Shown: positions 45,756-64,000 of the stretch, piece by piece
Position numbering within the stretch: the stretch's first letter is position 1
Layout: every line of letters starts with the position of its first letter
Assembly: GCA_963789265.1 (NCBI GenBank)
Contig: CAWBKB010000005.1
Span: forward strand, 160,001 to 224,000
From: an uncultured delta proteobacterium
Lineage (GTDB): Bacteria > Desulfobacterota > Desulfomonilia > Desulfomonilales > Desulfomonilaceae
Direction: 5' to 3'
DNA: 64,000 nt
Position numbers and translations under genes: made by a program
Notes under the pieces: model-generated
Seen by the model: only the letters and a program-made list of their open reading frames with translations
Told to the model about the DNA's origin: nothing
Database searches by the model: none

Positions 45756-47760
45756 CTACACTTCGCAAGCCAAGGTGAAGCCACCATCAAGAGCGCTTCC
45801 AATACGTCCAACTTCTTTTGCATCGCCAATGGCGCACACATCCACGCCGGACTGCTCAAGTTTCCGGCTTAGAGAATTCTCCGGCCGCGAGCCCATTGCC
45901 AGCACTACCGAATCCGCAGGTATGGTGATGTCATTACCTTTGGAATCAGTGTATATTACCTTCTCCAAGGTGATATCTTTCATTTTCGCCTCGGTCACTA
46001 TGGTTACACCTCTCATTTTGAGTTCTTTAAGAAGCACCCAGCGAGTAGAAGGCCCAATATCCTGGCCAATCCGTGAGACCATCTCAATAACCGTCACCGT
46101 CTTTACGCCTTTGAGCATCAGTTCCCGAAGCACCTCGGGGGACTCTGCCTGGTGCATCGTGAGAAAATAGACCTGGCTCGGGGAAATCGTCCCTTTTGAA
46201 GCCAAGAAGACCGCTGTTTCCAGACCGACCGACCCTCCACCAACCACTACTACATTCGAACCTGTCTGAACCTTTCCCCTCAGAACATCCCAGGCCTGGA
46301 ACACGTTAGGGGCTTCCACCGCCTCTATGGGCGGCTTGAATGGAGCAGCGCCCGTGGCCACGACCACCAGATCAGGTTTTTCTGCTGCCACGAGCTCAGG
46401 CGTGACCTTCGTGCCTGTGCGCACATCTACCTCGTACTTGTGCAAAACAGCACGATAGTAGTCGAAGAGATAGTGGAAATCATGCTTATGGGTCGTTTCC
46501 GCGGACCAGTTGACTTGTCCTCCGATCTGCTGTTTCTTTCTCGCAAAGAATAATTTCGTGTCCACGCTGTGCCGCAGTGACCGCGAATTCGCATCCGGAC
46601 GGACCCGCGCCGGCCACAAGGATCTTCTTTGGGGACGCGGCCTTTACTATGACGGTCTCCTTTTCACGACCACACCTGGGATTGACCATGCAGCCAACGG
46701 GCTTTAATTGAAAAACGTGATCAAAGCACCTCTGGTTGCAGGCCACGCATCGACGAATTTCCTCGGCCCGCCCATCTCGCGCCTTGTTCACAAATTCTGG
46801 ATCGGCCAACATTCCTCTGGCAACCCCTACCAGATCGGCTACTCCCTCCCTGAGCACTTCTTCGGCTATGAAAGGGTCGTTGATACGGTTGCAGCCTATA
46901 ACCGGGATGCCGACGTTTTCTTTGATACCTCTTGCGAGGTAAACATAACCCGCTTGGGGGAGATCCATTGTTATCTGTGGAACTCGGCTCTCATGCCATC
47001 CTCCTGTAACGTTGATGCAGTCAGCCTCCGCTTTTTCCACCGCCGCGGCAAAGACACGTGCTTCCAGGTTGGTGTGGCTGTCGGGCACGAAGTCATTCCC
47101 CGCCACACGAACAATGACGGCCATGTCCGACCCCACTTCTTGTCGAACACGTTTGACCACTTCCAGCCCGAAGCGCATGCGGTTTTCCAACGGACCGCCA
47201 TAATCGTCCTCTCGCTTATTGGTTTTGGGGGAGAGAAACTGACATATCAGATAGCCCGCGGAGGCCAGCACCTCAACTGCATCAAACCCGGCCTGCTTGG
47301 CCCTTCGCGCAGCTTTGACGAAATCGTCCTGGACGCGTTCGATATCGTCCAGGGTCATAGGAGTTGTCTTTTGTCGCGTGAAATAGGTCGTGTACTCGGA
47401 AGGGGCAAGGGTGGGAAGCCCTCTAAGACCGCAGAAGGAGTAGGCACCCGCCATGTACAACTGCACCGCGGTTTTTGACCCGTTCCGATGTATAGCTTCT
47501 GTGAACCTTTGCAGCCCGGGAACGTAGCGATCGTCTTTGATGGAGAGCATCAAGCCGACACCCGATGCCTGATCGTTGATCTCCGCGCCGCCGATAATGA
47601 TCAATCCCGCGCCTCCTCGGGCACGGGTCGCGTAGAAATCGATGAAACGGTCCGTAACTTGTCCGTCGGGGGTGTAATTAAGGTGCATGGCCGTCATGAC
47701 AACTCTGTTGGACAGAGACATGGGACCTACGGAAATCGGCTCGAACAGTTTTGTAATCAA
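45756..47760 (-). CDS. fadH: 2,4-dienoyl-CoA reductase / OYE-like flavin oxidoreductase; +1 frameshift near 46533
   Basis: NRVVMTAMH, GYLICQFLSP.TN.R.D.YGG, C.ACNQRC.DH, GAGPSG, then VVATGA, GGGSVGLETA, AIGDA in the second frame. Confidence 0.82.
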
Positions 47761-47996: not shown

Positions 47997-48025
47997 CCTT
48001 TTGGCCGCTCTTTCAAGGCCCCACA

Positions 48026-48859
48026 TCACGCGCCTTTGAAATTTCCTTTTCTTTTTTCGAGATACGCGGAAATGGCCTCAAAAAGATCCTCCGATGGCAT
48101 AATCATGCTCGATCTCGCTGCATTGTAGTCCAGAGCCTGATCCATCGGCACCTCATCGTTGAAGAGGAAAACATCCTTGGCACCCTGGACCGCGAATGGC
48201 GGATTATCCGCTATTTCTATGGCCATTTCCAAAGCCTTGGTGTCGAGCGTGTCCTTATCCGGATATACGTTGTTCACCAGGTTGATGGCCCGGGCATGCT
48301 GGGCGTTGAACCGATGGCCTCGAAAAGCTATTTCGCGCGCATGCCCTTGCCCCACCACTTTCGGGAGCCGCTGCAGCCCTCCGACATCCGTGATAATGGC
48401 AAGCGTAGCCTCAGGAAGAGCAAACACGGTCTCTTCCGAACAGAGACGTATGTCGCAACACAGGATAAGTTCCAGTCCGGCGCCAAGGCAGTGGCCGTGT
48501 ATTGCCGCAATCGTGGGCTGTGAGAGGCGCTCCAGCCGCGTATGGATCGCTTGAACTTGCTTTACCTCTTTGAAGAGAGCCACCTTTTGGGCGGCATTCG
48601 CCGGGCCGGTGACCGTTGCTATTATCTTATTTTCAGGGCTCAGATCCAGACCTGCGCAAAAAGATTTGCCCGCGCCTGCCAGGAGTACGACCCTGGCCTC
48701 GGGGTCTTTTTCTGCCATTCCGATGGCCCGGTCCAGGTCCTTCCACAAGCTGAGACTCATTGCGTTCCGCTTTTGGGGCCTGTTAAGCGTGATAAAACCT
48801 ACCCGCCCATCCCTGTGGTAGGTCACGAGAGCCCCGGTTGCCGATACCTCCATGTCCAT
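48026..48859 (-). CDS. Enoyl-CoA hydratase/isomerase (crotonase) family protein
   Basis: ITLNRPQKRNA, FCAGLDL, AAIHGHCLGAGLEL, LPEA, DVGGLQRL. Confidence 0.9.
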   Translation of the reverse strand: MDMEVSATGALVTYHRDGRVGFITLNRPQKRNAMSLSLWKDLDRAIGMAEKDPEARVVLLAGAGKSFCAGLDLSPENKIIATVTGPANAAQKVALFKEVKQVQAIHTRLERLSQPTIAAIHGHCLGAGLELILCCDIRLCSEETVFALPEATLAIITDVGGLQRLPKVVGQGHAREIAFRGHRFNAQHARAINLVNNVYPDKDTLDTKALEMAIEIADNPPFAVQGAKDVFLFNDEVPMDQALDYNAARSSMIMPSEDLFEAISAYLEKRKGNFKGA

Positions 48860-48944
48860 GATCGAATTTCTCCTCACTTTCAGACTCATGTCTCGACGCC
48901 CGTGCGGAGGCGTCCGGCCGCTGTATCGAGAGCTGACGCTCAGT

Positions 48945-51345
48945 TCACAATTCCTCTGATTCACTCCCGTATGCCCCATGTACAAGCTGTATTCCGACAG
49001 GCCTGCCACCCTTATGGATGGCCTCCCGGCCGAGTGCTGCATTTACCCTGAGATCCAGTACATGACGATCGAGAGAAGGGATCCGGGCTGAATCGGGCCG
49101 AGTCGCTTTGAGACACTCTAACAGCGTTTCCTGGAACTCCTTATCGGAAAGCTCCGGAATTGTTTCCAGCAATCTCATGGCCTCTTCAGATCTTTCCATG
49201 TTGAGAAGGCAGCGAACTCTTTTCAGCATGGAGGACGGTACTTCCTCTGAAATTGCCTGGTAATATTCCATAGCCCATGCGTACTTCCCTGCGTTGACCA
49301 GTGTGTCCGCCAATGCGTTCAGCGGGGTGGGCTTGCCTTCCAGCAAACCCGCCAAACTGCGCACGTTGTCGCGTTTATCCAATTTTGCCATCATGTGTAC
49401 CAGCATTAGAAAATGACCTGGAGTCCTCAGCAGAGCACCGGGGTCAGCATCACGCAAAGCCAGGTAGTAAAGGACCTCGTTTTGTTCTCGTAGCAAATCG
49501 AGATCGGGAAATGGATACGTGTTGGATATTCGGAGGTGCTTCACTTCATCGATGGTGCTTGCATTCACCGATATCAATACCTTGTGGATCTTTGCATGCA
49601 CTTGGATTTCTTTTCCCCGCAACTCTTCTTCAACGTAGTCATCGGGAAAAACAAAGTCGAAGTCAATCTCGTTTCCCTCTTTGGCGCCGACAAAACCCGC
49701 TTCAAAAGTTGGGAGCAAAAGCCCTCGTCCCAGCAACACATCCCAGTACTTTCCTGATATTCCTGTAAAGGGAACCCCTTGGATCCAACTCCGTGAGTCG
49801 AATATGATTCGGTCTGTGGGACCGGCCGAGGTTCCGCTCTCTCTAAAAAATCCCAAGGAGGAAATCAGCTCCTTCACCGCTGACTCTTCCCCATTAAGTG
49901 TTGCGCGGTATCCTTCCAAGAATTGTTCTAGCAGCGAAAACTCCTCAATGGCGCTGGCGGCAAGGGCCCCATACGCATGAAACATCGACTCATCCGATAG
50001 ATCCTCCCGATTCGTCAGCAAGAAATCCAGGATCTCAAATAAGCGCTGTTTGTAATAGACGTCTCTTTCCATCTGTTCATTGGCAAGGGCCCAAAGGTTG
50101 CGCACCTTTTTGATGTCCGCCTTTGACATTTGTTCAGTTTCGTACCGGTCCCCAACAGAGAGGTAAGTGGGTCTGTATCCGGGATGGGGCCTGATGCCGA
50201 AGCGTTTCGGGCCGTGTTGGTACACCGATCCAAAGTAAAGCTGCATTTGTTGTGAGCCTGAGTTCGATTGAATAGGGATTTCCAGTGAGCGTAGGAAATT
50301 CATGGTCTCACGCGCGTCATCGACAGTTTCACCCGGAAGCCCGAAAATTGAGAAAAGTTCCGCTTCCATACCCAGTGAATGAACAACCTTGATATTTTCT
50401 TCAAGCTGCCTCAAGAATATCCCCTTGTTGGTATTCTTGAGCACGCCGGGGCTTCCGGATTCGAGGCCGAACGCCACCGTGTCGGCTCCGGCTTGCGCCA
50501 GCTTCTTCAGCAGGGAAGGATCCACGAGATCGGCCCTGGTTTGGAGCCAGAACGGAGTGGTAATCTCCCTCCTGATTTTCTCTTCGAGTAGTCTCTCCGT
50601 TCTGTCCCTGTTCTTCGGTGAAATTGGGGTCGGCAAACCAGAACCGTTTTATTCCCTTTCCTGCGAGGAACTCCATTTCAGCTATTGTTCTTTCAACAGA
50701 ATGGCAGCGTACTTTACCTCCGCAAATGCGGGGAGTTATGCAGAACCAGCAAACATGTCTGCACCCCCTGGAGGAAAGGAGAATTGCCGTATTCTTTCCT
50801 TCCAGATTAAGCAGATTCGCCAAATAAGGGGAAGGATAGAAATCTAGATCTTCAGGCCCTTCCGGCACCGGACCGCTCTCGATGATGCGTCCGTCGCTCC
50901 TGCACGTAATTCCCGGGATCTCTTCAAGGTTCCCGCCCGCCTGAAGGGCCCGGCCTATTGCGGGCAGTATCACTTCGCCCTCTCCCCTTACGAGGGCATC
51001 CACGTCGCAGAGAGCTTCCAGGGCACCTGAAGGCATGGCCGATACCTGCGGACCGCCTAGAACCACCTGTATTTTGGGGTGCCTTGACTTGATGTACCGG
51101 CAGAGAAAGCGAATCCGGCTCATGGTGCTCTGATAGGCCGTGAACCCTACAACCCATGGGTCGATACGGCGAATCCACTTTTCAAGGTTCCTAAGGCTCA
51201 AGGGCCTGTCCCTAAGGTCATCGAGGATTATGCCGTCGAATCCGCCGGCCTTGAGCGCCGCAAGGATATAGCCCGTGGAGATAGGGATACTCTCTGACGA
51301 TTCATAGCCCACATCATGGTTCACATTGATAAAGAGAAAAGCCAC
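48945..51345 (-). CDS. B12-binding radical SAM protein fused to a trigger-factor-type FKBP domain and TPR-like helices; +1 frameshift near 50614
   Basis: VVLGGP, RGEGE, SSRGCRHVCWFC, FADPNF|T, FGLESGS, IFGLPGET; then LPTFEAGFVGAKEG...FPDDY..EELRGK. Confidence 0.8.
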
Positions 51346-51461
51346 GGATCACCGTTCCATTGCTGCATAGTTGAGGAGAGGTATAAGAATAACACCAAAT
51401 GAATTTGACAGACAACATGCGCGGTTGACCGACCGTCCCGCCCCTGCTAAATCATGACCTC

Positions 51462-51749
51462 ATGAAAAAGATCAAGAGTCCGTGGTATGGAGCTTTGTGG
51501 ACACTGGTTTGGACGGCAGCCCTTATCTGGTTCCTTGCCTCAGGCATGTTCAATACAAGGGAATGCGTCGGGTTGGTCCTGATATGGTTGGTTCTTGTTG
51601 GTTTTACCGGCTATTTGATTCTGCGCCACCTGAAACATAGAGCGGGGCACGCGGTGGAGCCGCCATCACGTGTCGTTGCTCTCCCTGCACTGAACGCGCC
51701 CTGCCCATGCGGCTCCGGCAAAAAATACAAGCGCTGTTGCGGAGCCTGA
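51462..51749 (+). CDS. Small membrane protein with C-terminal SEC-C zinc motif
   Basis: Two TM segments, then NAPCPCGSGKKYKRCCG. Confidence 0.8.
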   Translation: MKKIKSPWYGALWTLVWTAALIWFLASGMFNTRECVGLVLIWLVLVGFTGYLILRHLKHRAGHAVEPPSRVVALPALNAPCPCGSGKKYKRCCGA

Positions 51750-51768
51750 GGCAAACAAAAGAGACTAA

Positions 51769-51979
51769 GTTCAGTTTTTCGTAAGTACGGTCGCAGATTT
51801 TCACGCTGGAGATTGCCAGTGGGACGGGCATCCTGCCCGTCATCCATAACAGACAGGCTGGAAGCCTGTCCCACCATTCACGCGCAATGACATTCCCATT
51901 ACATGTCATAGCGAGCGCAGCGAAGCAATCTTCTTCCGGACCGAGTTCTTAGCTTCACCGTATTTGCGAAAAGGAGCAC
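51769..51979. mobile_element. MITE family A copy with TAA flanks, related to the GIY-YIG element
   Basis: TAA-gttcagtttttcgtaagtacggtcgcagattttcac ... accgtatttgcgaaaaggagcac-TAA. Left end and cargo match 10491-10540 and 11072-11157. Confidence 0.7.
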
Positions 51980-51987
51980 TAAGATTA

Positions 51988-52557
51988 CTATCTCGTCAAC
52001 CTGTACGTGCTTTCTATCGTGTTAATTACTTGTTGCCGCGCCTGATCCATCCCCCAACCACTATCCAGCAGACAGGTTAAATATAGCCTGGCGGTCATTT
52101 GCATCTCAGGCTCGGTCCGAGCCCTAGCAATCATCATGGGATACCGTGAGCAGTCAGGCCGCTGCTGCACTTGAGGTGGCGGGGGAGGCTGATAAGCCGG
52201 TTCTGGATGCCATTGCTGGAGGACCCGGCTGCTGGTAATGCTCGTGAGACCGCGACGCCCGTTTGCGCGAGGGAGCTGGAGCAGCATTTTCGGTACATAG
52301 GGCTTCACCGATCCGTAACGAAGGCTGTTGCTATTCTGCTGCTGGTACCGTCGCGAGTGCCGACGGTGTCGGGAATCAAGCGGTTGGGTCGAACCGGTGT
52401 CGAGGTGGTTCCCGCGGTTGTCGAATTCAGGGGCTTTGGGCACGCTGTATGGAAAATCCTGGGCCACGACACTCTGAGTGACCACAGTTCCTACCAGGAC
52501 CATAGCCACCGATAATACAATAACCATACCGAATCTCATCATAACAACGATCTCCAT
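51988..52557 (-). CDS. Secreted Pro/Gln-rich hypothetical protein
   Basis: Signal peptide, low-complexity linker, C-terminal domain with two Cys; probable compensating indels at about 52200-52290. Confidence 0.65.
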   Translation of the reverse strand: MEIVVMMRFGMVIVLSVAMVLVGTVVTQSVVAQDFPYSVPKAPEFDNRGNHLDTGSTQPLDSRHRRHSRRYQQQNSNSLRYGSVKPYVPKMLLQLPRANGRRGLTSITSSRVLQQWHPEPAYQPPPPPQVQQRPDCSRYPMMIARARTEPEMQMTARLYLTCLLDSGWGMDQARQQVINTIESTYRLTR

Positions 52558-52761
52558 CTAAATCGGCGCCGCACTATATCACAAGCACGTTGAGAACGCT
52601 ATTTCGCCCCACGGGCGGGTAGTGCCCCAATTCAGTGTGTCAATCGTTATTCCTGCGTACGCCGTCCCGCGTTTCGCGGGACAGTAGGATCGGCCACCCC
52701 GCGGGACGCGGAGCTTCTTCCCCTTATTGAAGGGGGGCCTTGACCGTTGGGGTTCGGAAAT

Positions 52762-54564
52762 CTATCGGCCACCCGAACCGAACTTGTGAATCTTGTTTAG
52801 CAGACCCTGTCTCGACAGCCCCAACTGCTTCGCCGCGAGACTTCTGTTGCCGGCGCAGCTTTCGAGCGCTTCCTGAAGCATGGATTTCTCCATCCTTTCA
52901 GTAGCTTCTTTTAGAGTGAGAGGATTGGAAGTCGCCTTATCTTCAATCATTTTTTCAACCGAATTTCTTATACGAGGCGAAAGACAGCGAACCGACAAGT
53001 TTCCTCCGTCGCCCGCAAGTATATGGGCACGTTCGATCTCATTTTCCAATTCTCTCACGTTCCCCGGCCAGGGATAACGAACCAACAATTCAAGGACGGT
53101 CGGATCTAGACCGCGGACGGGTTTGCCGGTCAGCACAGTCAATTTGTCCAGAAAATGTAGAGCCAGCAAAGGGATATCATCGGCACGTTCGCGCAAAGGC
53201 GGGATCACAATGGGAAATACATTCACTCTGTAAAACAAGTCTTCGCGAAACATGCCTTGCTGGATTCGTTCGTTCAGGTCTCGGTTAGTTGCGGCAATAA
53301 GGCGTACATCAACAATCTGGGACCTGTTTTCACCTACAGGCTTTATTTCCCCGGACTGAATAGCGCGAAGCAGCTTCACCTGCATGGAGGGGGAGGTCGC
53401 TTCGATTTCATCCAGGAAAAGTGTCCCGCGGTGGGCCGCCTTGAACACCCCTACATGATCGGCTACCGCGCCGGTGAAAGCGCCTTTCCTGTGCCCGAAC
53501 AGTTCACTCTCAATCAGCTCCGACGGGATCGCGGCGCAGTTCAAGCTTACGAGTGATTCATTTACTCTCGGGCTAAGCCGGTGGATCGCTCGGGCCACCA
53601 GCTCTTTTCCTGTTCCGGATTCACCCTGTATCAGGACCGTAGTTTCAGTGGGCGCAACCTTACGGATTAGAGATCGAACTTCCTGCATGCCTGCGGCGCT
53701 TCCGATAATCTCTTCCAGCAAGTCACTGTGGTGAAGAGCCTGCTTCAGACCGACGTTTTCTTGCCTCAGTAAAGAAGCACTCTGTCTGAGATGATCCCAT
53801 TCCAGCGCATGCTCCATTGATCTAGCAGCCTGGGATGCGAGAATTTCAAGTATTTCCAAATCAATAGAAGTGAAGACTCCGGCACGCTTATTAAGCACCT
53901 GGAATACCCCTATTACGGGTCCCCCTGGGACGCGCAACGGCACACAAAGGAGGTTCTTTGTTCTGAACCCTGTCTGAGGATCAACCGCCTTGTTAAAGCG
54001 AGGGTCTTTGTACGTGTCGACGATGTTCAGCGATTCGCCGTGCGTAAACACCCACCCGGCAATACCGGACTGCCAAGGTATACGGATCTGATCGTGCTTT
54101 AGCCCCACCCCGAGGTGCGAATACAGTTCCTTGGTTTGGTGATCCGCCAGAAATATGGTCGCGCGTTCCGCATTCATGACGGAAGGGGCTTCCCTTATGA
54201 GAAGCTCAATCAGTGAACTCATATTCGTTTCGCTGCTAATCAAAATCCCCATCTTGAACAGCAGCGATATCCGTTCCAGATAAGAGCCGAGAGGTTTGGC
54301 TGGTCTCGTGAAGCGCTTCGATCCCTCTTCCATTCCCAGGGCTTCTTTGAGTAAGGTTATGTCAACATGAATGGTGATCGCTTGGACGAGTTCCTCCACC
54401 GAGATCTTGCCTTTCGACAGGAGAATCTCTTGAGGGGACCTTCCTGTCTCCTTTGCCTCATTAATGGCCTTCGCATAATCGTCTTTGCCTATTCTTCCCG
54501 TTTCCAGGAGGAGTCGGCCGATGGAATGGAGATCAATCACGAATACTCTCCCCGGTTTTGCCAT
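52762..54564 (-). CDS. Sigma-54 enhancer-binding protein (MshEN-like, GAF, AAA+, Fis-HTH)
   Basis: GESGTGKE, ESELFGH.KGAFTGA, LFLDEI, FREDLFYR, WPGNVREL, C-terminal HTH; GAF GIAGWV...DPRFN..VD..TGF.T. Confidence 0.92.
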   Translation of the reverse strand: MAKPGRVFVIDLHSIGRLLLETGRIGKDDYAKAINEAKETGRSPQEILLSKGKISVEELVQAITIHVDITLLKEALGMEEGSKRFTRPAKPLGSYLERISLLFKMGILISSETNMSSLIELLIREAPSVMNAERATIFLADHQTKELYSHLGVGLKHDQIRIPWQSGIAGWVFTHGESLNIVDTYKDPRFNKAVDPQTGFRTKNLLCVPLRVPGGPVIGVFQVLNKRAGVFTSIDLEILEILASQAARSMEHALEWDHLRQSASLLRQENVGLKQALHHSDLLEEIIGSAAGMQEVRSLIRKVAPTETTVLIQGESGTGKELVARAIHRLSPRVNESLVSLNCAAIPSELIESELFGHRKGAFTGAVADHVGVFKAAHRGTLFLDEIEATSPSMQVKLLRAIQSGEIKPVGENRSQIVDVRLIAATNRDLNERIQQGMFREDLFYRVNVFPIVIPPLRERADDIPLLALHFLDKLTVLTGKPVRGLDPTVLELLVRYPWPGNVRELENEIERAHILAGDGGNLSVRCLSPRIRNSVEKMIEDKATSNPLTLKEATERMEKSMLQEALESCAGNRSLAAKQLGLSRQGLLNKIHKFGSGGR

Positions 54565-57500
54565 ACAGAGCTATCTCGCCGGTCTGACCGTGAATAATCA
54601 TTTTACTCCCCACCACCACGTCATGTTCGTTGAATCGCACTATTTCGGGCTTGCCCGAAAACTTGGCTATCTGCCGAACCTGACCCACATAAACCTTGTC
54701 CAAGGATTTGGAGATATCCGCCGCGTGCGCTCCTCTGCCACCTAGATGGCTTATGAGAGCGGTAGCCACCGGAAGCGAAAAGATCTCTTCCATTATCTCC
54801 TCGGGAATAGGATCGTTAACCACAAAAATGAATCCGTCCAGTTTATCATGTTCCGGGAGACGTTCGTTCATGGCATCTATAATGGACTGGGCCTTACTGA
54901 TGTGCTTGAAAGGGGCAATTTGATTCCGATCGGTAACCATGATCCCTCTGAAAATTTTGCCGGAAACTCCCGTACCCTGCGCAATCACATCGTAGCCCGA
55001 CGAACTGAGAGGCGGGACTCTCTCTTTGCGCTCTCTATCCTTGCGAATCTGCAGAATGAAAACTTTCCCTTTTTCTATGGTGTACTCAAGACGAGTGTCA
55101 AAATGCAGCCGCTCCGCGGTCCGGAAGAGTACGGAATGAAGTTGCTTCCAAGCGTCAGGCATTTGAGAGGCGAGTGATTCCTGGGCCTTCCAGAGGTCGT
55201 ACACGGGAATCGTTGCCACCTTGCCGTCTACAACGTCGGTCCCCTGATCGCCTTGTGCGAAATCACCCCGAAGATCCATAGTGAAGGGATTGTAAGACAC
55301 AACACCCGTTCCCGAGGAATTGAGTTCCATGTTCCCGTAGACCATACCCTGAACGATGACCGGAGTGCGCCAATTCCCATGGATACCCGCCGCTTCTCTG
55401 TATTTGCTCGCTGCTCTTCCGTCATAGGAATGCAGCACGACGATGGCACAATGGATGAGAATGTCCAGGAATTGTCCCTTGTCAAGCAGCTCCACCACTT
55501 TGGGGGCCAACTCCGCAACTCGCGCCTTGTAATCGAATGCAAGACTCTTCATCTGCTCAGCGCTCATGTGGGCTTTGCGCCTCACTTTAAAACGTTCTTT
55601 GCGCTCATCGATGATTCCCTGAAACTCGTCTCTCTCCAAACCAAATACTGACTGGCTGAATTCCTGCAAGAAACGCCGATAACAATCGTATGCGAACCAA
55701 GGCCCCACTTTGGCAGCCAAAACTTCGGCCGTTTCATCGTTGATCCCAACATTGGTAATAGTTGTCATCATACCGGGCATGCTGACACGGGCCCCGGACC
55801 TCACTGAAAAGAGTGCGGGATTGGACGGATCACCCAAAGATCGACCCCAGAGCTGCCCCAGCTTGGCCACAGCGCGGCCCAACCCTTGTCTGAAGTCGGG
55901 GTTTGTCAACATTTCTTTCGGTTCCAGCAGGGATTGGTCTGTGGTGATGACAAAGTAAGGGGGGGTGTTTTCCGCGAATCGCAGCAAGGACGCCTTCAAT
56001 CCTATCCTGCAAGGTGAAATGTCTTTGGGGTCCGGAAAGTAAAAAGGTACCGAACGTAAAGGCCCCGGCCCTTTGCGAACGACCCTCTTACTGGACTCAG
56101 CAAGGCGCTGATTGAGAAAAAGCTCTATCTTATCTATGAAGGTTTCCAGGACCCTCAGGTTTCCATCTCGTGCCTGAAGATCGGATACATAGAGTGTTTT
56201 CAGATAGTTCTTGAAGAAATCGGTGTCGGGGACCTCTTTCAGGGTGGTCAAGTTCTTGAGCTTGCGCGGCAGTTTCTCCATCGGGCAGAAGGAAAGGAAA
56301 TTGTCAAAAGGCTCCTCGAACGAGCTTCGATAACTGACATATATATCATCGACCTCTTTCTTGATGATGGTCACCAGATCTCGCACTTTGTCCAGAGTCA
56401 GGCCGAGATCGCCGGCGCGGCGCAAATCGCGACCGCCTTGTTCCAAATAGAAACTCGAATGCCCGTTTACGGAGACTCCGCGCACCAGGCAATCGAGAAA
56501 GACGAGCGCATCCGCAAGATTCTCCAATGTAATTGTATCAAAATGAGTATTGTTTACGCTCGTGGCAAGGGTCTCCTGGAGTCCTTCAAGCTGGAGATCT
56601 TTATTGAAAGCCTCGAAACGTTCCTCAATGTATGTGGCTTTTTGCGCGTACGCATGTCCTGCCTTTTTCGCTCGCAAGATAATAGGCGTGCCGGGTCGCT
56701 CCCTGTTTATGAGCTCCATTTCCCGGGCCGCGTCTTCAGTCCCCTCCGTTAGGGTCACCGGCGCTGAAAGAGGTTCTGAAATATCGGGAGTGAGGAATTT
56801 TTGCTTGGTCTCTCCCCGCTCCAGAATGATTTGATCGAGACGGTTGAGGCCTTCCTCAGCCGTGGCGCCGGAGGCGGATTGGAGGACTATAAAATACTTC
56901 GCATACAAACCCTTGGCCAGCTCAATGACGTCCAGGACCATACGCCGGGAGAATTCCGGCCACGTCGGGTCGGAACGGTAGGGCGCAGTATCGAGGAATG
57001 CAAGCTGCATCATGCCTTCTTTTTCGGAAGGGTCTATTTTCAGGTCATCGAAGATGCGGCGGCACAGATCTCGCATCCCCTGCTCTTCCGGCATCGAGCA
57101 CCACTTGTTCATCGGCAGGTACGGCATTGATTCGGAGGGCATCCATTCCGCGATGGCTTCCGGTCGTCCCTCAGAAAAATATTTGACTATTCCCCGGCAA
57201 AAATAGAAATTTTCGATGCTTCCGCGCCAATGTATATCCCCGCGAAGCTTTCCCAGAAAGTTGCCGATGGGCTTTACACCTCGATTTGCCAACTCTTTCG
57301 CAAGCCCCGCTGCCGTGAGCCTCAGAGTGTCGAGCGGCCCTATATCCTTAAAAGAGTATGGAATCGCCTTTATAAGCGTCCGGATAGGGAAGTGCATAAC
57401 AGACGAGTTGGCCTGTAATAGCCTGGAGATCCAATATTGGATGAGGTCCTCATCGCACAGGCGCGTTTGGCCGATTTCGATCTGAATAACAAGATATGGT

Positions 57501-59017
57501 ACGAGGCGATGCATGATCCGCGGATTCGAGGCAATGATGGAGATCAAACACTTTATGTGTTGTGCGTGAGCCCGGTTTGCCCCTGATTCCTCGGCCAAGA
57601 CGAGGGGCTCGCCCGTATCGTCATCCTCGATGGTATATTTCTTGTCCAAAGGCTGAATTATCGGCCGTTTCACAAAATGGTCGATAAGCTCTTGGGCCAT
57701 AAGGAAATACCCGGATTTACCGAGCGTGACACCCAGTGATTCCAGCGCGTTCAGCGAGGATATCACTTCGCCGGTGTCTTTTGACGAATACGCGCGCTCC
57801 AGAAAGACATTGGCAAATGTATTTACAAGGTTCCTGGATGCTTGCTTTCTGGTCTTCTCCAGTCTGACTACTATGCGGCAAAGCCCGTCGATGAACAGCT
57901 CTTTGACTTCCGGTTTATCCACTGCAATGATCTGAGCAGCCAAAATCTCTGCAAAGGCCTCTTGCAAGTCCATCGGAAGCTCATCAATCATTTCCTGGAA
58001 AGCCGAAAGAATTGCTCTCCATTCTTCCGCCAGATTCTTGATGAATGAAATGCCCTTTGTAATCTCGCCTTCGTCTATTTGACCCCGTCCATCCAATGCG
58101 CTTTGATAGGTTTGCCTGCGTTTCTCGATTTCTTCGGCCGAGTGGAGGTTGATCCTTTCCAGGATCTCTTTCCGGAAGCGTTCCTTGGATGCAAAATTCT
58201 CGACCTCCAAAGCGCTTTCCAACCTTTTCACGAGACCTTCGGGACAAGCGCGTATTTCTCCCAGAGCAGTGATCAATGCCTGAACCGCCAATCTGTCCAC
58301 GTGCGAAGTCAGAGCGAATTTGATCTCATCCGACCGCTTCTTCAGGGCTGACCCGATCTCGGAAACTTCCAGAACGCGTCGTTCAAAAGAGTTCAAGGAG
58401 GTGCGAAACGGCTCTTGAGCCAAGAAATCGATGACGGATTCCACGAACGGCTGGTACTGCTGAAATGTCTTATCATTGGCAGTATTCAGAATGCCGGCCA
58501 CCAGACGTGACAAGACGTGTTCTCCTTCAGACCGGGCAGCCGCATCAAACGGCTGACGCACCGCTGCAAACAAATAGCTGAAGAGGATCTCCATTACAGA
58601 GGGAAGGTGGTCGCCCAGCGACTCGTCATCTCTATCCAGCGAATATCGGGAGATCAATCGGACTACTTCCAACCAGTTGGGGATTTCGTACAGCGCTGAT
58701 ATGAGGTTTTCACGGATGGCAAGCCGCCGGCCTTCAAAGGAAGTGAGATAGACAAGCTCTTCCAAAGATTCACGCGAAAACCGGCTGAAGAGCGTAAGTC
58801 GCGAATCATATTGCCGCAAGGCGACCAGATAAGGGGAAGCCTCCTTACCCGTACGGTCGAGGATCATTAAGACTGTAGGGAGAGCCTCAACCGCGAGCGT
58901 CGTTTGATCCCCGAACTTGATGCCGGAAAGATTGATGACCTCGGCCATTCCGGCGATCTGGTACGGATTGAGCGGTTCGTGATCGCTGATCTGCCGTATG
59001 AGATTCCTGACTTCCAC
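54533..59017 (-). CDS. Giant PPDK-related protein: about 980-aa unknown N-terminal region + ATP-grasp + phospho-His domain, no pyruvate barrel
   Basis: SVRSGARVSMPGMM, FAYDCYRRF, VQGMVYGN..SGTGV, QGTDVVDG, EYTIEKGKVFILQIR, GGRGAHAA; the protein ends soon after the His domain. Confidence 0.85.
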   Translation of the reverse strand: MEVRNLIRQISDHEPLNPYQIAGMAEVINLSGIKFGDQTTLAVEALPTVLMILDRTGKEASPYLVALRQYDSRLTLFSRFSRESLEELVYLTSFEGRRLAIRENLISALYEIPNWLEVVRLISRYSLDRDDESLGDHLPSVMEILFSYLFAAVRQPFDAAARSEGEHVLSRLVAGILNTANDKTFQQYQPFVESVIDFLAQEPFRTSLNSFERRVLEVSEIGSALKKRSDEIKFALTSHVDRLAVQALITALGEIRACPEGLVKRLESALEVENFASKERFRKEILERINLHSAEEIEKRRQTYQSALDGRGQIDEGEITKGISFIKNLAEEWRAILSAFQEMIDELPMDLQEAFAEILAAQIIAVDKPEVKELFIDGLCRIVVRLEKTRKQASRNLVNTFANVFLERAYSSKDTGEVISSLNALESLGVTLGKSGYFLMAQELIDHFVKRPIIQPLDKKYTIEDDDTGEPLVLAEESGANRAHAQHIKCLISIIASNPRIMHRLVPYLVIQIEIGQTRLCDEDLIQYWISRLLQANSSVMHFPIRTLIKAIPYSFKDIGPLDTLRLTAAGLAKELANRGVKPIGNFLGKLRGDIHWRGSIENFYFCRGIVKYFSEGRPEAIAEWMPSESMPYLPMNKWCSMPEEQGMRDLCRRIFDDLKIDPSEKEGMMQLAFLDTAPYRSDPTWPEFSRRMVLDVIELAKGLYAKYFIVLQSASGATAEEGLNRLDQIILERGETKQKFLTPDISEPLSAPVTLTEGTEDAAREMELINRERPGTPIILRAKKAGHAYAQKATYIEERFEAFNKDLQLEGLQETLATSVNNTHFDTITLENLADALVFLDCLVRGVSVNGHSSFYLEQGGRDLRRAGDLGLTLDKVRDLVTIIKKEVDDIYVSYRSSFEEPFDNFLSFCPMEKLPRKLKNLTTLKEVPDTDFFKNYLKTLYVSDLQARDGNLRVLETFIDKIELFLNQRLAESSKRVVRKGPGPLRSVPFYFPDPKDISPCRIGLKASLLRFAENTPPYFVITTDQSLLEPKEMLTNPDFRQGLGRAVAKLGQLWGRSLGDPSNPALFSVRSGARVSMPGMMTTITNVGINDETAEVLAAKVGPWFAYDCYRRFLQEFSQSVFGLERDEFQGIIDERKERFKVRRKAHMSAEQMKSLAFDYKARVAELAPKVVELLDKGQFLDILIHCAIVVLHSYDGRAASKYREAAGIHGNWRTPVIVQGMVYGNMELNSSGTGVVSYNPFTMDLRGDFAQGDQGTDVVDGKVATIPVYDLWKAQESLASQMPDAWKQLHSVLFRTAERLHFDTRLEYTIEKGKVFILQIRKDRERKERVPPLSSSGYDVIAQGTGVSGKIFRGIMVTDRNQIAPFKHISKAQSIIDAMNERLPEHDKLDGFIFVVNDPIPEEIMEEIFSLPVATALISHLGGRGAHAADISKSLDKVYVGQVRQIAKFSGKPEIVRFNEHDVVVGSKMIIHGQTGEIALYGKTGESIRD

Positions 59018-59202
59018 GGTGCTGTCCAGCGTGGTGAATTTTCGAATAACAAGCTTAAATCATTGCGATCACTATCGCAAGAAGTACGGATGGTCAGTAT
59101 GTGAAAGGCTTCACAAAGAAACTTTTATTGCGAGGGTCCTACTCCCATAGGCGATAACTGAAGTGCATTTCGTTACCTCTGAAGAGGTCCCAGGGCCATC
59201 AA

Positions 59203-59290
59203 AGTCCCCCTTTTATAAAGGGGGATTTAGGGGGATTTTCAATGGGTTATCTCAAAATCCCCCCTAGCCCCTCTTTATAAAAGGGGGGAA
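59203..59290. repeat. TCCCCCTTT..AAAGGGGGA inverted doublet
   Basis: tcccccttttataaagggggatttagggggattt ... aaatccccctagcccctctttataaaagggggga. Confidence 0.8.
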
Positions 59291-59312
59291 CCCCGCGTCC
59301 CGCGGGGTTGAG

Positions 59313-60848
59313 TTAGCGCCTATGGGGTACTACTCCTGGTTCGGATCTTGTCTCCTGATATAAGAAACACAATTCTCGGCCCAAACTTGAGGTGAGTTTG
59401 ATTCTGTCGTAATTTATGGCCACATTGTTAAAATATTGGAGGATGAGCGAATCTCCCAATGAGGAGGATGGCTTGATCCCAACGAAGAAAAATCCGAGCT
59501 GTTCAAATTCACGGGTCATGTAATAGGTCAAAGGGTCTTCCAGGCTGCAATATAGCTGTATGACCTCAATATGCTGGAGGCAAAGCTCTTTGAGCCTTGC
59601 TTTCACTTCCAATAAGACGTCGGACCCGTACTCTTCAACGTCAATCCACCCGAATCCTGTAGGGCCGTAGTGAACTGTATTCAATCTTGAATGAGGCCCC
59701 GAAAATCGTGGCCCCGGGACGGACGGGGCTTCAAAGTCAGGCTCGACACCGATGTTGATATACAGCTTGCGAATGATTTCTTTATGATGCTCGGGCGCAT
59801 ATATGGGAAATAATTCAAGCTTTGTCATATATCTAAAACAAATCAGGTAAGTTTCACGCTGGGGAAGCGTTTCGGTAAGGCCCTTGAACGACAACGTCGC
59901 AGGGCCGAAACCAACAAGCAATCCGCAATCGTTAAAACCAAACCGATGAATGGCCTGCTGGGAATAAGTGTGGTTGGTTGCGGCCACGACGTAGAGCGCT
60001 CGCGTATTTTCGGATTTTGCTTTTGCGATAAGGTACTCTGTGAGCCGAGTGAGGCACCCCTGCCACCGAAACTCAGGTTTCACAACGGCAAAGCCAAGTT
60101 CTGCCACGTTTGAGCTGGAATCCCACCTGAGCAGCGCACAATGGCCTATTATTTCGCCATCTCGAGTGACTGCCACCACTGATAAAATTTCGCCTTTTTC
60201 GTTGAGTTCGACAATCCTATCCGGATAGTAAATCTGACGATAAGCAAAAGAGTATCCGTAAGCCTTGTAGAAGCACTTGGAAACTTCTATCGCTTCGCGC
60301 GGCTGCATCGGCCGGACTTCAAATTCTACCGTATTCGGCGGGAAAACACGGACTGACGCGGGCCCTTCGTAAGGTTCCAACTCGCAGACATTGTAATAGT
60401 CTTTGATGGTGCCTGTTTGTAGGTAATTGATCAGGTGCGTTTCTTTTCCTTCCAGACCCAGGTTGTGAAAAGAAACTTCATCCATGGCTTGCGTACCCGG
60501 AGAGAGAACACATTGGGGCCTGAACATGAGTTTGGCGTTCGATTCACACTCGGGCGGCACAATCTCGGCAGACTGAAGCGGGAGGCCCTTGTCTTTGATG
60601 ACGATTTTGAGCCCCATGAGGACTCTTTCGCAACTTATATCAAGAGTGGCTCGCTCATTCGGTTCGAATGCCTTCTCGATGACTTTTGAGACTACATCCT
60701 CGACTCCACTAGCAATATCTCGGCAGGTTGTTTCGTCGAAACCGAAACTTTGAGCCACATTTCGAATGTAAGCGCCGACTACACCAAGATAGGAAGCATC
60801 GGTGGGGATAGTAAGCTTTGAGTATTGGCATGGTTCTGTAGTGCTCAT
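59313..60848 (-). CDS. RsbW-like (HATPase_c_2) + GNAT fusion protein; probable C-terminal +1 frameshift
   Basis: LTIP.D.SYL, IKDKGLP, MDEVSFHNLG, then GNAT IIGHCAL...AELGFAVVKPEFR.QG. Removing one T gives the ending ELCSYIRRQDPNQE-stop. Confidence 0.8.
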   Translation of the reverse strand: MSTTEPCQYSKLTIPTDASYLGVVGAYIRNVAQSFGFDETTCRDIASGVEDVVSKVIEKAFEPNERATLDISCERVLMGLKIVIKDKGLPLQSAEIVPPECESNAKLMFRPQCVLSPGTQAMDEVSFHNLGLEGKETHLINYLQTGTIKDYYNVCELEPYEGPASVRVFPPNTVEFEVRPMQPREAIEVSKCFYKAYGYSFAYRQIYYPDRIVELNEKGEILSVVAVTRDGEIIGHCALLRWDSSSNVAELGFAVVKPEFRWQGCLTRLTEYLIAKAKSENTRALYVVAATNHTYSQQAIHRFGFNDCGLLVGFGPATLSFKGLTETLPQRETYLICFRYMTKLELFPIYAPEHHKEIIRKLYINIGVEPDFEAPSVPGPRFSGPHSRLNTVHYGPTGFGWIDVEEYGSDVLLEVKARLKELCLQHIEVIQLYCSLEDPLTYYMTREFEQLGFFFVGIKPSSSLGDSLILQYFNNVAINYDRIKLTSSLGRELCFLYQETRSEPGVVPHRR

Positions 60849-61092
60849 AACGACTTCACTCTAAGAGTTGGGCGAGATCAGGTCAAGTAAAGGTTTTGAC
60901 AGATTCCGTTGGGGCTTATTAAAGAGATTCTCGAAACTAGTCACGGGACGAGAAAATGATGTGGTGGGGACAGGTTGTCCTGCCTCGAGGGACCGTCCCC
61001 CCAATCTGAATTAGGTGAGAACACGCATCACGTGTGACGACAATTTTCGAAAATCAGCATAGAGGACTACAATCGTGGTTGGAGGCTTGCGG

Positions 61093-61165
<73 letters not shown>

Positions 61166-61419
61166 AACACAACCTTTATTGGCTGTCTTGCGTCTCAAAA
61201 GACGGAATTTGGGGGAGCCCATATAAACGTTCAAAAAAAGAAAACTCTCTGCGTTCTCCACGGTGAGGCTTTACTTCATCTCTTTTGACTAATTTCTGTG
61301 ATGCTGCTACCTTACTGCAACAACTCCCTTGTGCTTTCTGCGGCTGTGGCCCGGCCGGGTCAGCCGGCAGATTGATCGATAACAGCCGCCATAAAATTCA
61401 AGTGGATTCGGGGACGATT

Positions 61420-62532
61420 ATGGTCATAGGAGTTCCTAAAGAAATCAAAGAAGACGAGTATCGGGTGGGCATCATTCCCCACGGGGTACGCGACCTTACC
61501 GAACATGGCCATACCGTACTGATCGAACAGGGTGCAGGCGAAGGTTGCAGGATTTCCGATCAGGAATTCGCGGCCGCGGGTGCTCGGATTATCCTCGACA
61601 AGGCCGAGGTCTACAGCCGAGCCGACATGATTATTAAGGTGAAGGAGCCTCTGAAGCAAGAGTACAACTTGTTCCACGAAGGCCAGATTCTGTACGCCTA
61701 TCTTCATCTCGCGCCTGCTCCGGAGCTTACCGCGGCCCTTCTTGACCGAAAAGTCATCGCGGTTGCGTATGAGACGATCCAACTGGATGACGGAACCTTG
61801 CCCTTGTTAGTACCTATGAGCGAGGTAGCCGGCCGCATGGCCGTACAGATCGGAGCGCATTTTCTGGAAAAGACCCAGGGAGGGAGAGGCGTGCTGTTGG
61901 GTGGCGTGCCTGGGGTCGGTCGCGGTCGAGTAACCATAATAGGCGGGGGAACTGTAGGCCGGGCCGCGACAAAAATTGCTGTCGGATTTGGCGCGGATGT
62001 CCATGTTCTGGATGTGGACCAGCAGCGTTTGATATACTTGGACGATATCTACGGGAATCAAGTGACTCTTCTGATCTCGAACTACGAAAACATCCTGCGA
62101 GCTGTGATAAAATCCCACGTTGTGATCGGGTCGGTTCTCATTCCGGGAGCCAGGGCGCCCCGACTTATAACCCGCGACATGGTCGGAGCTATGAAAGCGG
62201 GAAGCGTAATCGTAGATGTATCTATAGATCAGGGTGGATCCTGCGAGACCTCCAAACCTACAACTCACCAGCACCCCACGTTTGTAGTAGATGAGGTGCT
62301 GCATTACTGCGTTCCTAATATGCCGGGCGTGGTGTCTCGAACTTCGACGTTTGCGCTAACAAATATCACTCTGCCTTATGCATTAAAGTTGGCGGACCAA
62401 GGGATTGACGGAGCAGTCGCGGATGATCGTGTTTTGGCCAAGGGAGTCAACCTTTACCGGGGCGCGGTGACCTACGCTAATGTGGCAGCCGCTTTGGGGT
62501 ACTCGTATACTCCACTGCGAGAAGTTATTTAG
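61420..62532 (+). CDS. ald: Alanine dehydrogenase
   Basis: IGVPKEIK.DEYRV, KVKEP, YLHLA, PMSEVAG, GVLLGGVPG, IDQGG, NMPG.V.RTST.AL.N. Confidence 0.96.
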   Translation: MVIGVPKEIKEDEYRVGIIPHGVRDLTEHGHTVLIEQGAGEGCRISDQEFAAAGARIILDKAEVYSRADMIIKVKEPLKQEYNLFHEGQILYAYLHLAPAPELTAALLDRKVIAVAYETIQLDDGTLPLLVPMSEVAGRMAVQIGAHFLEKTQGGRGVLLGGVPGVGRGRVTIIGGGTVGRAATKIAVGFGADVHVLDVDQQRLIYLDDIYGNQVTLLISNYENILRAVIKSHVVIGSVLIPGARAPRLITRDMVGAMKAGSVIVDVSIDQGGSCETSKPTTHQHPTFVVDEVLHYCVPNMPGVVSRTSTFALTNITLPYALKLADQGIDGAVADDRVLAKGVNLYRGAVTYANVAAALGYSYTPLREVI

Positions 62533-62581
62533 TATGAACAATCAATGGCCTGGAAAGCGATTTTTTGGCGGGGGATACCTA

Positions 62582-62665
62582 GTGTGTGGACGTCTCGTGT
62601 TAATGACACCGGGAAACGACTTGGCGGAACGGTTCGGGCTTGAAGAGGAGCCTGTTCTGGAGCGC
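62582..62665 (+). pseudogene. 5' fragment of an SRAP (SOS response-associated peptidase) gene
   Basis: GTG start gives (M)CGRLVLMTPGNDLAERFGLEEEPVLE, like the SRAP N-terminal CGR motif; then cut off by IS sequence. Confidence 0.6.
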
Positions 62666-62936
62666 ATAGTCGGCCAGTCTGGCCAGAGGGATATTCTCGC
62701 CCAGCAGCAACTCCATACCTCTGTCAACAAAGAAATCCTGATGTCGAAACAATGGACTTCGGCCCGAAAGCGCATCCAGGATCATCGCTAGCACCACCCT
62801 GCCAGGTCTGACTTCCATATCGCAGGCAACCAAGTGGTCAATCTCTTCCACCGAGACCGATCCTGCAGGCGTAAGCGGAAACGACGGGGAGAAACCTCGC
62901 GTCCGTAATCTGAAAACCAACCTCTTCCGAACTCAT
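62666..62936 (-). mobile_element. IS1634-family transposase 5' remnant
   Basis: RBS GAGGAGG, MSSEEVGFQ..ARFLPVVSAY..RIGL|VEEID.LV..MEV.PGRVVLAMILDALSGRSPLFR...ELLLGE; frameshifted and truncated. Confidence 0.7.
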
Positions 62937-63202
62937 GGGAACCTCCTCAAAAAGGCCCCCCTCGTCCTATCACAGAAAACGTCTCCTCGTGCAAGCTGTA
63001 ACATATTGATATTATCATGCGACCCAAATGAAAATAATCCGAATCTGGAGCCCACTGCTGCCGAACGCAAGATTTATCATCAGCGCATTGTTCTTGTCTT
63101 TTCCCTTCTCGGAAAACCCGTTGGAGTAGACGGAGTAGCGGACGACACAGAAATTGTTTATCCAAAAGAGTTTACCAAATAAATCGCTTCCTACGCAATG
63201 CT

Positions 63203-63592
63203 TTAGAGCAGAACAGCGATAAAGGCAAAGAGGCCGATGAGCAGTAGCAATATCGCCACAATCAGGGTGATAGGACGGAAATCGCCGTACTGAAACTGCT
63301 GTTTCTCAACTCTTTTGAGAATACGAAAGTGTTGCACAACCGCTGAAATCAAGCCAAGAATCCCCAGGGCTATGAAAGCGCTGCCAAAAACCCTGGCGCT
63401 GTGTAATGGGTCGTGAATTCTATCCGGCCGAACCATCTGCACATAGTCAAGGACTTTACTGATGCCGAATCCGAAGCCTATCAACGCAAGCGACGTCCTG
63501 ATCCACGCCAGAAGAGTTCGATCAGCAGCCTCTCGAGTGCGCTCTTTGGCCAGTTCAGTCGATATGTCGGAGCTTGTTGGCTTGTCTGACAT
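63203..63592 (-). CDS. DUF202/YidH-family membrane protein
   Basis: LAKERT..AADRTLLAWIRTSLALIGFGF; three TM segments. Confidence 0.88.
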   Translation of the reverse strand: MSDKPTSSDISTELAKERTREAADRTLLAWIRTSLALIGFGFGISKVLDYVQMVRPDRIHDPLHSARVFGSAFIALGILGLISAVVQHFRILKRVEKQQFQYGDFRPITLIVAILLLLIGLFAFIAVLL

Positions 63593-63756
63593 TGCTTTCT
63601 CCACGTAACCTATCGCATCATAAGTTAAACACGATTAGTGTGAGCCCCTCCACCCCAGTTGCCGGAGAGGGGTGCAATTGTCTTCAGTGAATCCGTTCCA
63701 TTCAGGTTCTTTCACAACATGATACTCACAGAAGTGAGACACGCCCGATCATATTC

Positions 63757-64000
63757 TCACGGCACAACCGCCGGCAAAGCCCCAAGCGTCTGCAAACTCT
63801 TGATGATGAACTCCGTAGCCAGCATGGCCTGGAGCACGGCCATGATCCACCCGATCACCTGCAGAATTGAAGCAGGGAAGTGCTTGAGCAATGCATCGGA
63901 ACACCAAAACGTAATCAGGTTCAGCACCATGATCACGAACAATAGCACAATAGTAATGACCTCCTGAAGGGAATCGCCTTTTGCGATGGCCACCAGGGCC
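63757..64000 (-). CDS. MarC-family membrane protein, C-terminal part (runs off the window)
   Basis: LQVIGWIMAVLQAMLATEFII resembles the MarC C-terminus. Confidence 0.65.
   Translation of the reverse strand, partial: ALVAIAKGDSLQEVITIVLLFVIMVLNLITFWCSDALLKHFPASILQVIGWIMAVLQAMLATEFIIKSLQTLGALPAVVP

Follow-up and report, generated by a model that had tools for sequence, protein, structure and literature searches.

A barrel-less giant dikinase encoded beside a sigma-54 activator in Desulfomonilaceae: a possible regulatory protein derived from pyruvate phosphate dikinase

The DNA analysed here (hereafter the window, 64,000 nt; positions 160,001 to 224,000 of contig CAWBKB010000005.1, assembly GCA_963789265.1) comes from an uncultured delta proteobacterium of the family Desulfomonilaceae and carries, on the reverse strand, a gene for a 1494-residue protein, the dikinase, whose C-terminal part resembles pyruvate phosphate dikinase (PPDK), overlapping with a gene for a sigma-54 activator, i.e. 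a bacterial enhancer-binding protein (bEBP). To judge by its sequence, the dikinase is without the pyruvate/phosphoenolpyruvate (PEP) domain and cannot be a PPDK or a PEP synthase, despite the names given to it in databases; its role is probably that of a regulatory kinase rather than of an enzyme acting on pyruvate. Somewhat short of even confidence, we favour the more specific reading that it is an autophosphorylating regulatory protein, which was derived from PPDK by loss of the barrel and serves as a signalling partner of the sigma-54 activator. The features on which the argument rests are as follows, in window coordinates:

54533..59017, reverse strand: dikinase gene, 1494 aa with a GTG start, from the open reading frame (ORF) list and the translation
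56063..59017, reverse strand: N-terminal domain of the dikinase, residues 1-985, an all-helical solenoid plus two small beta elements, without known family
55028..56062, reverse strand: PPDK-type nucleotide-binding (ATP-grasp) domain, residues ~986-1330, from PF01326, TIGR01828 and PPDK matches in the PDB
54536..55000, reverse strand: swivelling phosphohistidine domain, residues ~1340-1494, with the motif GGRGAHAA, from a weak PF00391 match, a fold match and alignment
54725..54727, reverse strand: codon of His1431, the predicted phospho-carrier histidine, invariant in both alignments checked and aligned to the catalytic His column of PPDK
52762..54564, reverse strand: sigma-54 activator (bEBP); 600 aa if started at the ATG, 592 aa if started at the GTG (54540)
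53809..54228, reverse strand: GAF domain of the activator, residues 113-252 (PF01590, PF13185, PF13492)
54533..54540, reverse strand: gene junction GTGATTGA, the probable activator start over the dikinase stop codon, with GGGGAGAG upstream, read from the sequence

A standard Pfam scan found a single domain in the dikinase, PF01326 (PPDK_N, E 2.5e-12), and the NCBIfam model for PPDK, TIGR01828, aligns its positions 32-337 of 865 with residues 1015-1328 (E 5.6e-62), the whole-protein score of 209.9 bits lying under the curated cut-off of 843.45. A sequence search of the PDB likewise returned PPDK, i.e. the Clostridium symbiosum enzyme (1ggo/1kbl), with E ~1e-43. When residues 986-1494 were modelled from an alignment of 32 orthologues (pLDDT 82.3), Foldseek matched the model to PPDK 1kbl (E 1.2e-31, TM-score 0.74), with the nucleotide-binding domain and the central phosphohistidine domain both covered, to the isolated phosphoryl-carrier domain of PPDK (2fm4, TM-score 0.72) and to rifampin phosphotransferase (RPH; 5hv1, E 2.5e-5, TM-score 0.31). 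PF00391 is matched by the swivel domain only weakly, since the score of 18 bits (E 0.0022) stays below the cut-off of 23.1, but the match covers profile positions 6-71 of 72. The PEP/pyruvate barrel, PF02896, was not found by the Pfam scan, the protein stopping 63 residues past His1431, and the linker helices of PPDK (~341-389) are deleted in the alignment.

An earlier note on this DNA, made from the sequence alone, had described a truncated PPDK with ATP-grasp domain and swivel His but without barrel, which is borne out by Pfam, NCBIfam, PDB, Foldseek and alignment. Every one of the nucleotide-binding motifs it quoted, as well as GGRGAHAA, is present in the translation (IGLKAS, residues 1005-1010; SVRSGARVSMPGMM, 1071-1084; SGTGV, 1235-1239; QGTDVVDG, 1258-1265; EYTIEKGKVFILQIR, 1311-1325; GGRGAHAA, 1426-1433), the His codon placed near 54726 is that of His1431, and the replacement by Gly of the Thr of GGxTSH is seen in the alignments with PPDKs. 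Among 193 columns that are invariant across eight ordinary PPDKs, 80 are kept in the Desulfomonilaceae clade, including K22, R92, G101, R134/135, E322, Q334, R336 and H455 (numbering of PPDK P0092). The dikinase residues K1008, R1073, G1082, R1114/R1115, E1311, Q1323 and R1325 stand at such PPDK-invariant columns in all eight clade members, and His1431 aligns with the His of GGxTSH in PPDKs and in the wider giant-dikinase family described below. The PPDK residues named here are those for nucleotide, Mg and phosphoryl transfer. Since the catalytic columns are kept and the protein ends after the swivel domain, the C-terminal module looks catalytically competent for the half-reaction from ATP to His~P, without a site for pyruvate or PEP.

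By sequence comparison, the dikinase belongs, as a divergent member, to a family of giant dikinases that has neither been named nor characterised. About 85 full-length homologues share 55-93 % identity with it and, where named, all belong to Desulfomonilaceae, Desulfomonile or Thermodesulfobacteriota. With residues 1-985 as query, phmmer found 92 hits among 1.84 billion representatives, which, besides fragments from the same clade, are proteins of ~1350-1540 aa with 24-30 % identity over residues ~480-630, often extending to ~890; the N-terminal core shared by the giant family corresponds to residues ~480-630 and ~700-870 of the window protein, followed by PF01326 and PF00391. Pfam scans of 25 distant relatives found PF01326 together with a C-terminal PF00391 in 16, PF01326 alone in six, an N-terminal hemerythrin domain in three and PF02896 in none. 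Named members include proteins of Magnetococcus marinus MC-1 (ABK44898.1) and of Thermoleophilia and Marinimicrobia metagenome-assembled genomes (MAGs). A search seeded with the Magnetococcus protein scored 8000 candidates and yielded at least 1209 clusters (90 % identity) with E <= 0.001. They belong to Magnetococcales, Candidatus Parabeggiatoa, Desulfurivibrio and other groups, Desulfurivibrio dismutans being a cultured example. The clusters are annotated as 'phosphoenolpyruvate synthase', 'PEP-utilizing enzyme' or 'PEP/pyruvate-binding domain-containing protein', and the name PPDK is also used in the family.

The distant clade has the canonical GGxTSHAA, with the Ser before the His in 16/16 and the His itself in 15/16 sequences. 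The Desulfomonilaceae clade has GGRGAHAA in the eight members aligned (GGRGAHAAD overall), and it is marked by two specific insertions, of which one adds ~17 residues to the His domain and the other an invariant acidic loop to the N-terminal domain. Neither the giant family nor its pairing with a sigma-54 activator was found described in the literature, subscription-only papers lying outside the search. Seemingly split or short dikinase forms (P0084-P0088; L008, L032, L025, L027, L038 and L041) look like frameshifted long-read assemblies and not like true splits. By its precomputed Pfam domains, a 2090-aa protein from a Planctomycetota MAG (P0096) combines enolase (PF03952, PF00113) with PPDK_N and the PEP-utilizers mobile domain, and is a barrel-less fusion of the PPDK module.

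Nearly all of the N-terminal domain is helix in an AlphaFold2 model of residues 1-985 (pLDDT 84.1), the two small beta elements lying at ~40-78 and ~754-797. Foldseek against the PDB returned generic HEAT/ARM solenoids (RRP12, CAND1, CRM1, importins; E ~1e-3, TM-score 0.09-0.23), with no TIM barrel, PPDK or RPH chain among the matches listed. A permuted pyruvate barrel is rejected in view of the all-helical model and the solenoid-only fold matches. Neither Pfam at E values up to 10 nor NCBIfam, PADLOC, a PDB profile search, the ESM Atlas or tblastn against plasmids assigned residues 1-985 to a family, so that the ~980 helical residues that could not be assigned in the earlier note remain, as ~985 modelled residues, with only the generic HEAT/ARM matches.

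This part nevertheless gives the impression of a genuine domain under constraint rather than of a spacer, because the mean column identity reaches 71 % over 32 species and particular residues are conserved in distant relatives. H484, D522, D524, G560, R566, R592, H596, K707, Y708, Y796, E798 and G852 are conserved in both clades; ten of these 12 are polar, and they are kept even in relatives at 24-30 % identity. The most conserved motifs are EDDDTGEPLVLAEE (464-477), GDIHWRG (~593-599) and KAGHAYAQ (~785-792), which sit within low-confidence loops of the AlphaFold2 model. Both halves of the dikinase are under strong purifying selection. We read the conserved polar set as a putative second functional site.

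The activator is a sigma-54 activator by its Pfam matches, i.e. PF00158 (Sigma54_activat, E 1e-68), GAF (E 2e-18), AAA lid and HTH_8 (E 8.7e-12), and its translation shows GAFTGA, GESGTGKE (Walker A) and LFLDEI (Walker B). The closest NCBIfam models are NifA, FhlA and NorR, and residues 1-100 have no family match even in permissive Pfam searches. Pfam finds GAF, AAA+ and HTH_8 but no REC domain, the lack of which had been stated in the earlier note; PRD and EIIA acceptor domains were likewise not found. As to the junction, the longest ORFs of the two genes do overlap by 32 nt, as the earlier note had it, but a GTG at 54540 with GGGGAGAG ahead of it corresponds in the alignment to the usual start of the homologues (M-[IVF]-D, six residues ahead of IGRLLLE). 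Because this matches the start used by most homologues, the true overlap is more likely the 8 nt of GTGATTGA than 32 nt.

In a scan of genome contigs we retrieved 41 dikinase loci from 41 assemblies and located the activators by tblastn. The activator lies directly downstream of the dikinase in 36 of the 41 loci, i.e. in 36 of the 40 that are informative at the species level, the sequence of L021 ending 4 nt past the dikinase and therefore being left out. The genes overlap by 4-32 nt at 18 of 29 measured junctions, by exactly 8 nt at 11 of those 18, and are separated by 21-336 nt at the remaining 11; the value for L027 is unreliable, the dikinase being fragmented there. The question put in the earlier note, whether homologues keep the GAF-bEBP neighbour, is thus answered in the affirmative for the activator but not throughout for its GAF domain, which is gone in three of the 36 loci. 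The activators concerned have 339-423 aa, essentially AAA+ and helix-turn-helix (HTH), and stand beside an intact dikinase at:

L029:14490-15698: GAF-less activator
L037:9828-11099: GAF-less activator
L033:14722-15741: GAF-less activator

The activators of L029 and L037 keep ~80 N-terminal residues, whose start faintly resembles IGRLLLETG, without significant alignment. In a quick maximum-likelihood tree of the dikinase (a careful search being unfinished), the exceptional loci are nested among normal ones, i.e. L004 and L006, which have no activator, are sister to L029 and L037, while L005, L026 and L033 branch separately. Since they nest at several places of the tree, the loci without activator or without GAF domain look like secondary losses. 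No region-specific relaxation of the dikinase was found in either kind of locus, all changes being conservative.

Could the two genes be mere neighbours, or could the dikinase be a normal PPDK or PEP synthase that relies on a barrel provided by another protein? The four loci without an adjacent activator fit the former, and the database names of the family, PPDK or PEP synthase, fit the latter. Chance neighbourhood is at odds with adjacency in 36/40 informative species over 55-93 % identity with mostly overlapping frames, and an ordinary PPDK is at odds with a TIGR01828 score of 210 against a cut-off of 843 and with the missing PF02896; a barrel gene was not seen among the conserved neighbours, nor was PF02896 present in any of the 25 distant relatives. 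We regard this explanation as very improbable.

We favour a regulatory role for several reasons: the activator is the only consistently conserved neighbour and is translationally coupled; activators without sensory domain, which resemble PspF and occur in three loci, depend on a regulator in trans; relatives with a fused hemerythrin domain have the look of sensors; and a catabolic context is not conserved. PspF is an activator of AAA+ and HTH domains without sensory domain that needs such a regulator. Moreover, VadK provides the example of a PPDK without barrel that phosphorylates itself and is a regulator binding to partner proteins (PMC13400623).

The mechanism might then run as follows. The ATP-grasp domain would bind ATP and phosphorylate His1431 on the swivel, as in PPDK, RPH and VadK, which homology and the kept residues suggest. 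The swivel would thereafter visit a second site on the N-terminal domain, where, to go by their conservation, the His, Asp, Arg, Lys and Tyr residues may bind an acceptor or a ligand. In Desulfomonilaceae, the gene order suggests that dikinase and activator are produced together, their genes overlapping, and that the former is the signalling partner of the latter, whose AAA+ activity would be controlled by the nucleotide or phospho-His state of the dikinase. Such control would most probably be exerted in a stable complex, like that of NifL with NifA or of VadK with the enzymes it regulates, rather than through a phosphorelay of the classical kind.

Several observations weigh against a regulatory partnership of this kind. 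The His-domain motif is unusual (GGRGAH, not GGxTSH) and is accompanied by R428V, T431P and R449L at PPDK columns; phosphotransfer in the Desulfomonilaceae clade could for these reasons be altered or lost. Four loci (L004, L005, L006 and L026) have 1.1-10 kb of sequence downstream of the dikinase without an activator, and in L006 and L026 the dikinase gene is intact. As the dikinase is fully conserved in these four and in the three GAF-less loci, its core function needs neither the GAF domain nor adjacency to the activator. With at least 1209 clusters in the giant family, the link to the activator may also be peculiar to one clade. No conserved site was found by GG-N10-GC scans of all loci before the dikinase, after the activator or before the neighbouring radical SAM gene. 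Finally, no fused dikinase-activator protein (over 1724 aa) was found, although this is weak evidence.

The model built on the earlier note, i.e. direct transfer of the phosphate from His1431 to the N-terminal domain, GAF domain or AAA+ domain of the activator as a new phosphorelay into sigma-54 transcription, draws on the conserved and overlapping gene pair and on an activator that has no REC domain and ~100 unassigned N-terminal residues. Activators of the LevR type offer a precedent, being sigma-54 activators that are phosphorylated by phospho-His proteins of the phosphotransferase system (PTS). An acceptor domain of the PRD, EIIA or REC type was, however, not found in the activator, whose N-terminal region and GAF domain are dispensable in three lineages in which the dikinase is unchanged, and the conserved N-terminal domain of the dikinase, which distant relatives have as well, would be left without a role. 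The conservation of the dikinase without GAF domain or adjacent activator also argues against a strictly GAF-dependent function. Direct transfer thus appears quite unlikely to us. An equally speculative extension would see here a third route of His-phosphate signalling besides two-component systems and the PTS, with the dikinase as its sensor kinase, in which the ATP-derived swivel phospho-His would act, via the solenoid as docking platform, on the sigma-54 activator directly or on a small molecule read by its GAF domain, while the giant relatives (at least 1209 clusters, other phyla) would be unrecognised signalling kinases of a similar sort with other outputs; we give this little credence.

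As for the other neighbours, none is as widespread as the activator, and genes upstream of the dikinase are not conserved. The third conserved gene of the block is:

51988..52557, reverse strand: orf189, with a hydrophobic N-terminus that is likely a signal peptide by eye

Its product has a low-complexity middle and a conserved C-terminal stretch of ~55 residues with two Cys, and no family was found for it in Pfam (including permissive searches) or NCBIfam. Homologues lie downstream in 20 other loci (21 with the window) and directly follow the dikinase in the activator-less loci L004 and L006. Counting the window, an enoyl-CoA hydratase is found in 18 loci, a B12-binding radical SAM protein in 17 and a reductase of the old yellow enzyme (OYE)/Pyr_redox type in 14; neither metabolic or catabolic genes nor a barrel gene were seen as conserved companions of the dikinase across the loci.

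These data bear on the possibility that the dikinase is a metabolic enzyme like RPH, HpeHI or phenylphosphate synthase, whose N-terminal domain would bind a substrate other than pyruvate that takes over the phosphate of His1431, the activator being an operon regulator that senses substrate or product via its GAF domain. With the exception of VadK, all characterised enzymes that combine ATP-grasp and swivel His with another third domain are reported to phosphorylate small molecules or glucans (PMC4844700, PMC12167813, PMC13553574). The conserved set of His, Asp, Arg and Lys in the N-terminal domain resembles a catalytic or phosphate-binding site, and the canonical GGxTSH is kept in the wider family. 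On the other hand, the HEAT/ARM-like solenoid does not resemble the substrate-binding part of either RPH or PPDK, and no chain of these two is among the fold matches listed; catabolic genes are not conserved alongside, and a conserved sigma-54 promoter was not found upstream of the operon. Some relatives are fused to hemerythrin, and activators without GAF domain cannot sense a substrate. We consider a small-molecule dikinase rather unlikely, if a serious competitor, and retain the regulatory partnership as the preferred reading.

In the window, TGGCAC-N5-TTGC with up to two mismatches occurs 63 times against 55.8 expected, i.e. without enrichment, and a candidate sigma-54 promoter, TGGGAATGTCATTGC at 51884-51898 on the reverse strand, was rejected as it is not conserved. 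A search of window positions 48000-64000 against Rfam gave no match. A GC-rich palindromic repeat, CCCGCGGGACGCGG, is present with its variants in seven copies against 0.64 expected in the window, among them at 52667-52711 and 59293-59306 and also at 30225, 37938, 38137 and 42025; intergenic copies flank the dikinase-activator pair beside palindromic-looking C-rich and G-rich runs and resemble repetitive extragenic palindromic (REP) elements. Upstream of the dikinase, a 511-aa protein (59313-60848, reverse strand) combines a weak RsbW-like HATPase_c_2 match, below the cut-off, with a GNAT acetyltransferase domain; its gene is the immediate upstream neighbour of the dikinase gene in the closest relatives alone (L001, L025, L027, L036 and L038) and lies further upstream in L024 and L033.

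Two of the downstream neighbours seem to be broken in the window. The B12-binding radical SAM gene (48945-51345, reverse strand) is split into overlapping ORFs at 50401-51345 (314 aa) and 48945-50636 (563 aa), the C-terminal part of the latter also matching trigger factor/FKBP and TPR models, while each homologue in the related loci is encoded by one ORF (median 798 aa); the window looks frameshifted or misassembled here. A second apparent frameshift concerns the Oxidored_FMN ORF (46486-47760), which overlaps the Pyr_redox_2 ORF (45756-46619), both on the reverse strand, and in related loci corresponds with it to a single protein of the 2,4-dienoyl-CoA reductase type (median 667 aa). Elsewhere, a dense signalling cluster on the forward strand (16918-22253 and 3456-6140) encodes two REC-GAF proteins, a PAS histidine kinase, a REC-PAS hybrid and a multi-PAS hybrid kinase, and a 672-aa ORF (42217-44235, reverse strand) has no Pfam family at E <= 1e-5.

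The names carried by the giant family, PPDK and PEP synthase, would mislead metabolic reconstructions into a false step of PEP-pyruvate interconversion. The family brings with it a domain of 900-1000 residues without known relative and includes the cultured Magnetococcus marinus MC-1 and Desulfurivibrio dismutans, while the overlapping and conserved pairing with a sigma-54 activator provides a concrete, testable output for one clade. Together with VadK, the family suggests that loss of the barrel with retention of ATP-grasp and swivel domains is a recurrent conversion of a central metabolic enzyme into a regulator. Two things were not known to the earlier note, namely that the clade sits within a very large family extending beyond Desulfomonilaceae, and that VadK, a PPDK without barrel, has meanwhile been described as a regulatory His kinase.

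Among known systems, VadK (Rv1127c-type truncated PPDK, EMBO Rep 2026) is reported to autophosphorylate on the swivel His in a Mg-ATP-dependent manner and to regulate partner proteins, i.e. enzymes of the methylcitrate cycle (PMC13400623). Like the dikinase, it consists of a PPDK-derived ATP-grasp and a phosphohistidine domain without PEP/pyruvate domain (PMC13400623). VadK has ~490 aa and no N-terminal extension, whereas the dikinase has 985 extra residues; the partners of VadK are metabolic enzymes, whereas the gene partner of the dikinase is a transcription activator. The NCBIfam model NF004531 ('pyruvate, phosphate dikinase', 534 positions), which represents the VadK type by assumption only, matches residues 1017-1327 (E 2.1e-47) at 162 bits against a cut-off of 456, so that the dikinase fails both its score and its length of ~490-534 aa. 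GGRGAH and the additional ~17 residues of the His domain are peculiar to the Desulfomonilaceae clade.

PPDK (TIGR01828; PDB 1kbl and 1dik) is the closest relative of residues 986-1494 in both sequence and fold (26 % identity, TM-score 0.74), with the aligned nucleotide-site residues and the His common to both. The dikinase differs from it in that the TIM barrel is absent, the linker helices are deleted, TSH is changed to GAH and a 985-residue N-terminal domain is added. RPH, said in its report to belong to 'a large unexplored group' of such enzymes (PMC4844700), and the two-component small-molecule dikinase HpeHI (PMC12167813) share with the dikinase the logic of an ATP-grasp domain, a swivel His and a non-pyruvate third domain. 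However, the domain order of RPH is ATP-grasp, substrate domain and swivel, whereas that of the dikinase is helical domain, ATP-grasp and swivel, and the helical solenoid has no detected similarity to the rifampin-binding domain. RPH is also much more distant from the C-terminal module than PPDK (Foldseek E 2.5e-5 versus 1e-31). Overall, the sequence suggests that the dikinase is most like PPDK, VadK and RPH in the first half-reaction.

Control of sigma-54 activators by a partner protein is known from NifL-NifA and PspA-PspF. As with NifL-NifA, an activator of the GAF-AAA+-HTH type is encoded beside, and apparently co-translated with, a large nucleotide-binding protein, and, as in PspF, activators without sensory domain occur in three loci. 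In contrast to NifL-NifA, the putative partner is not a PAS/GHKL protein but a dikinase derived from PPDK.

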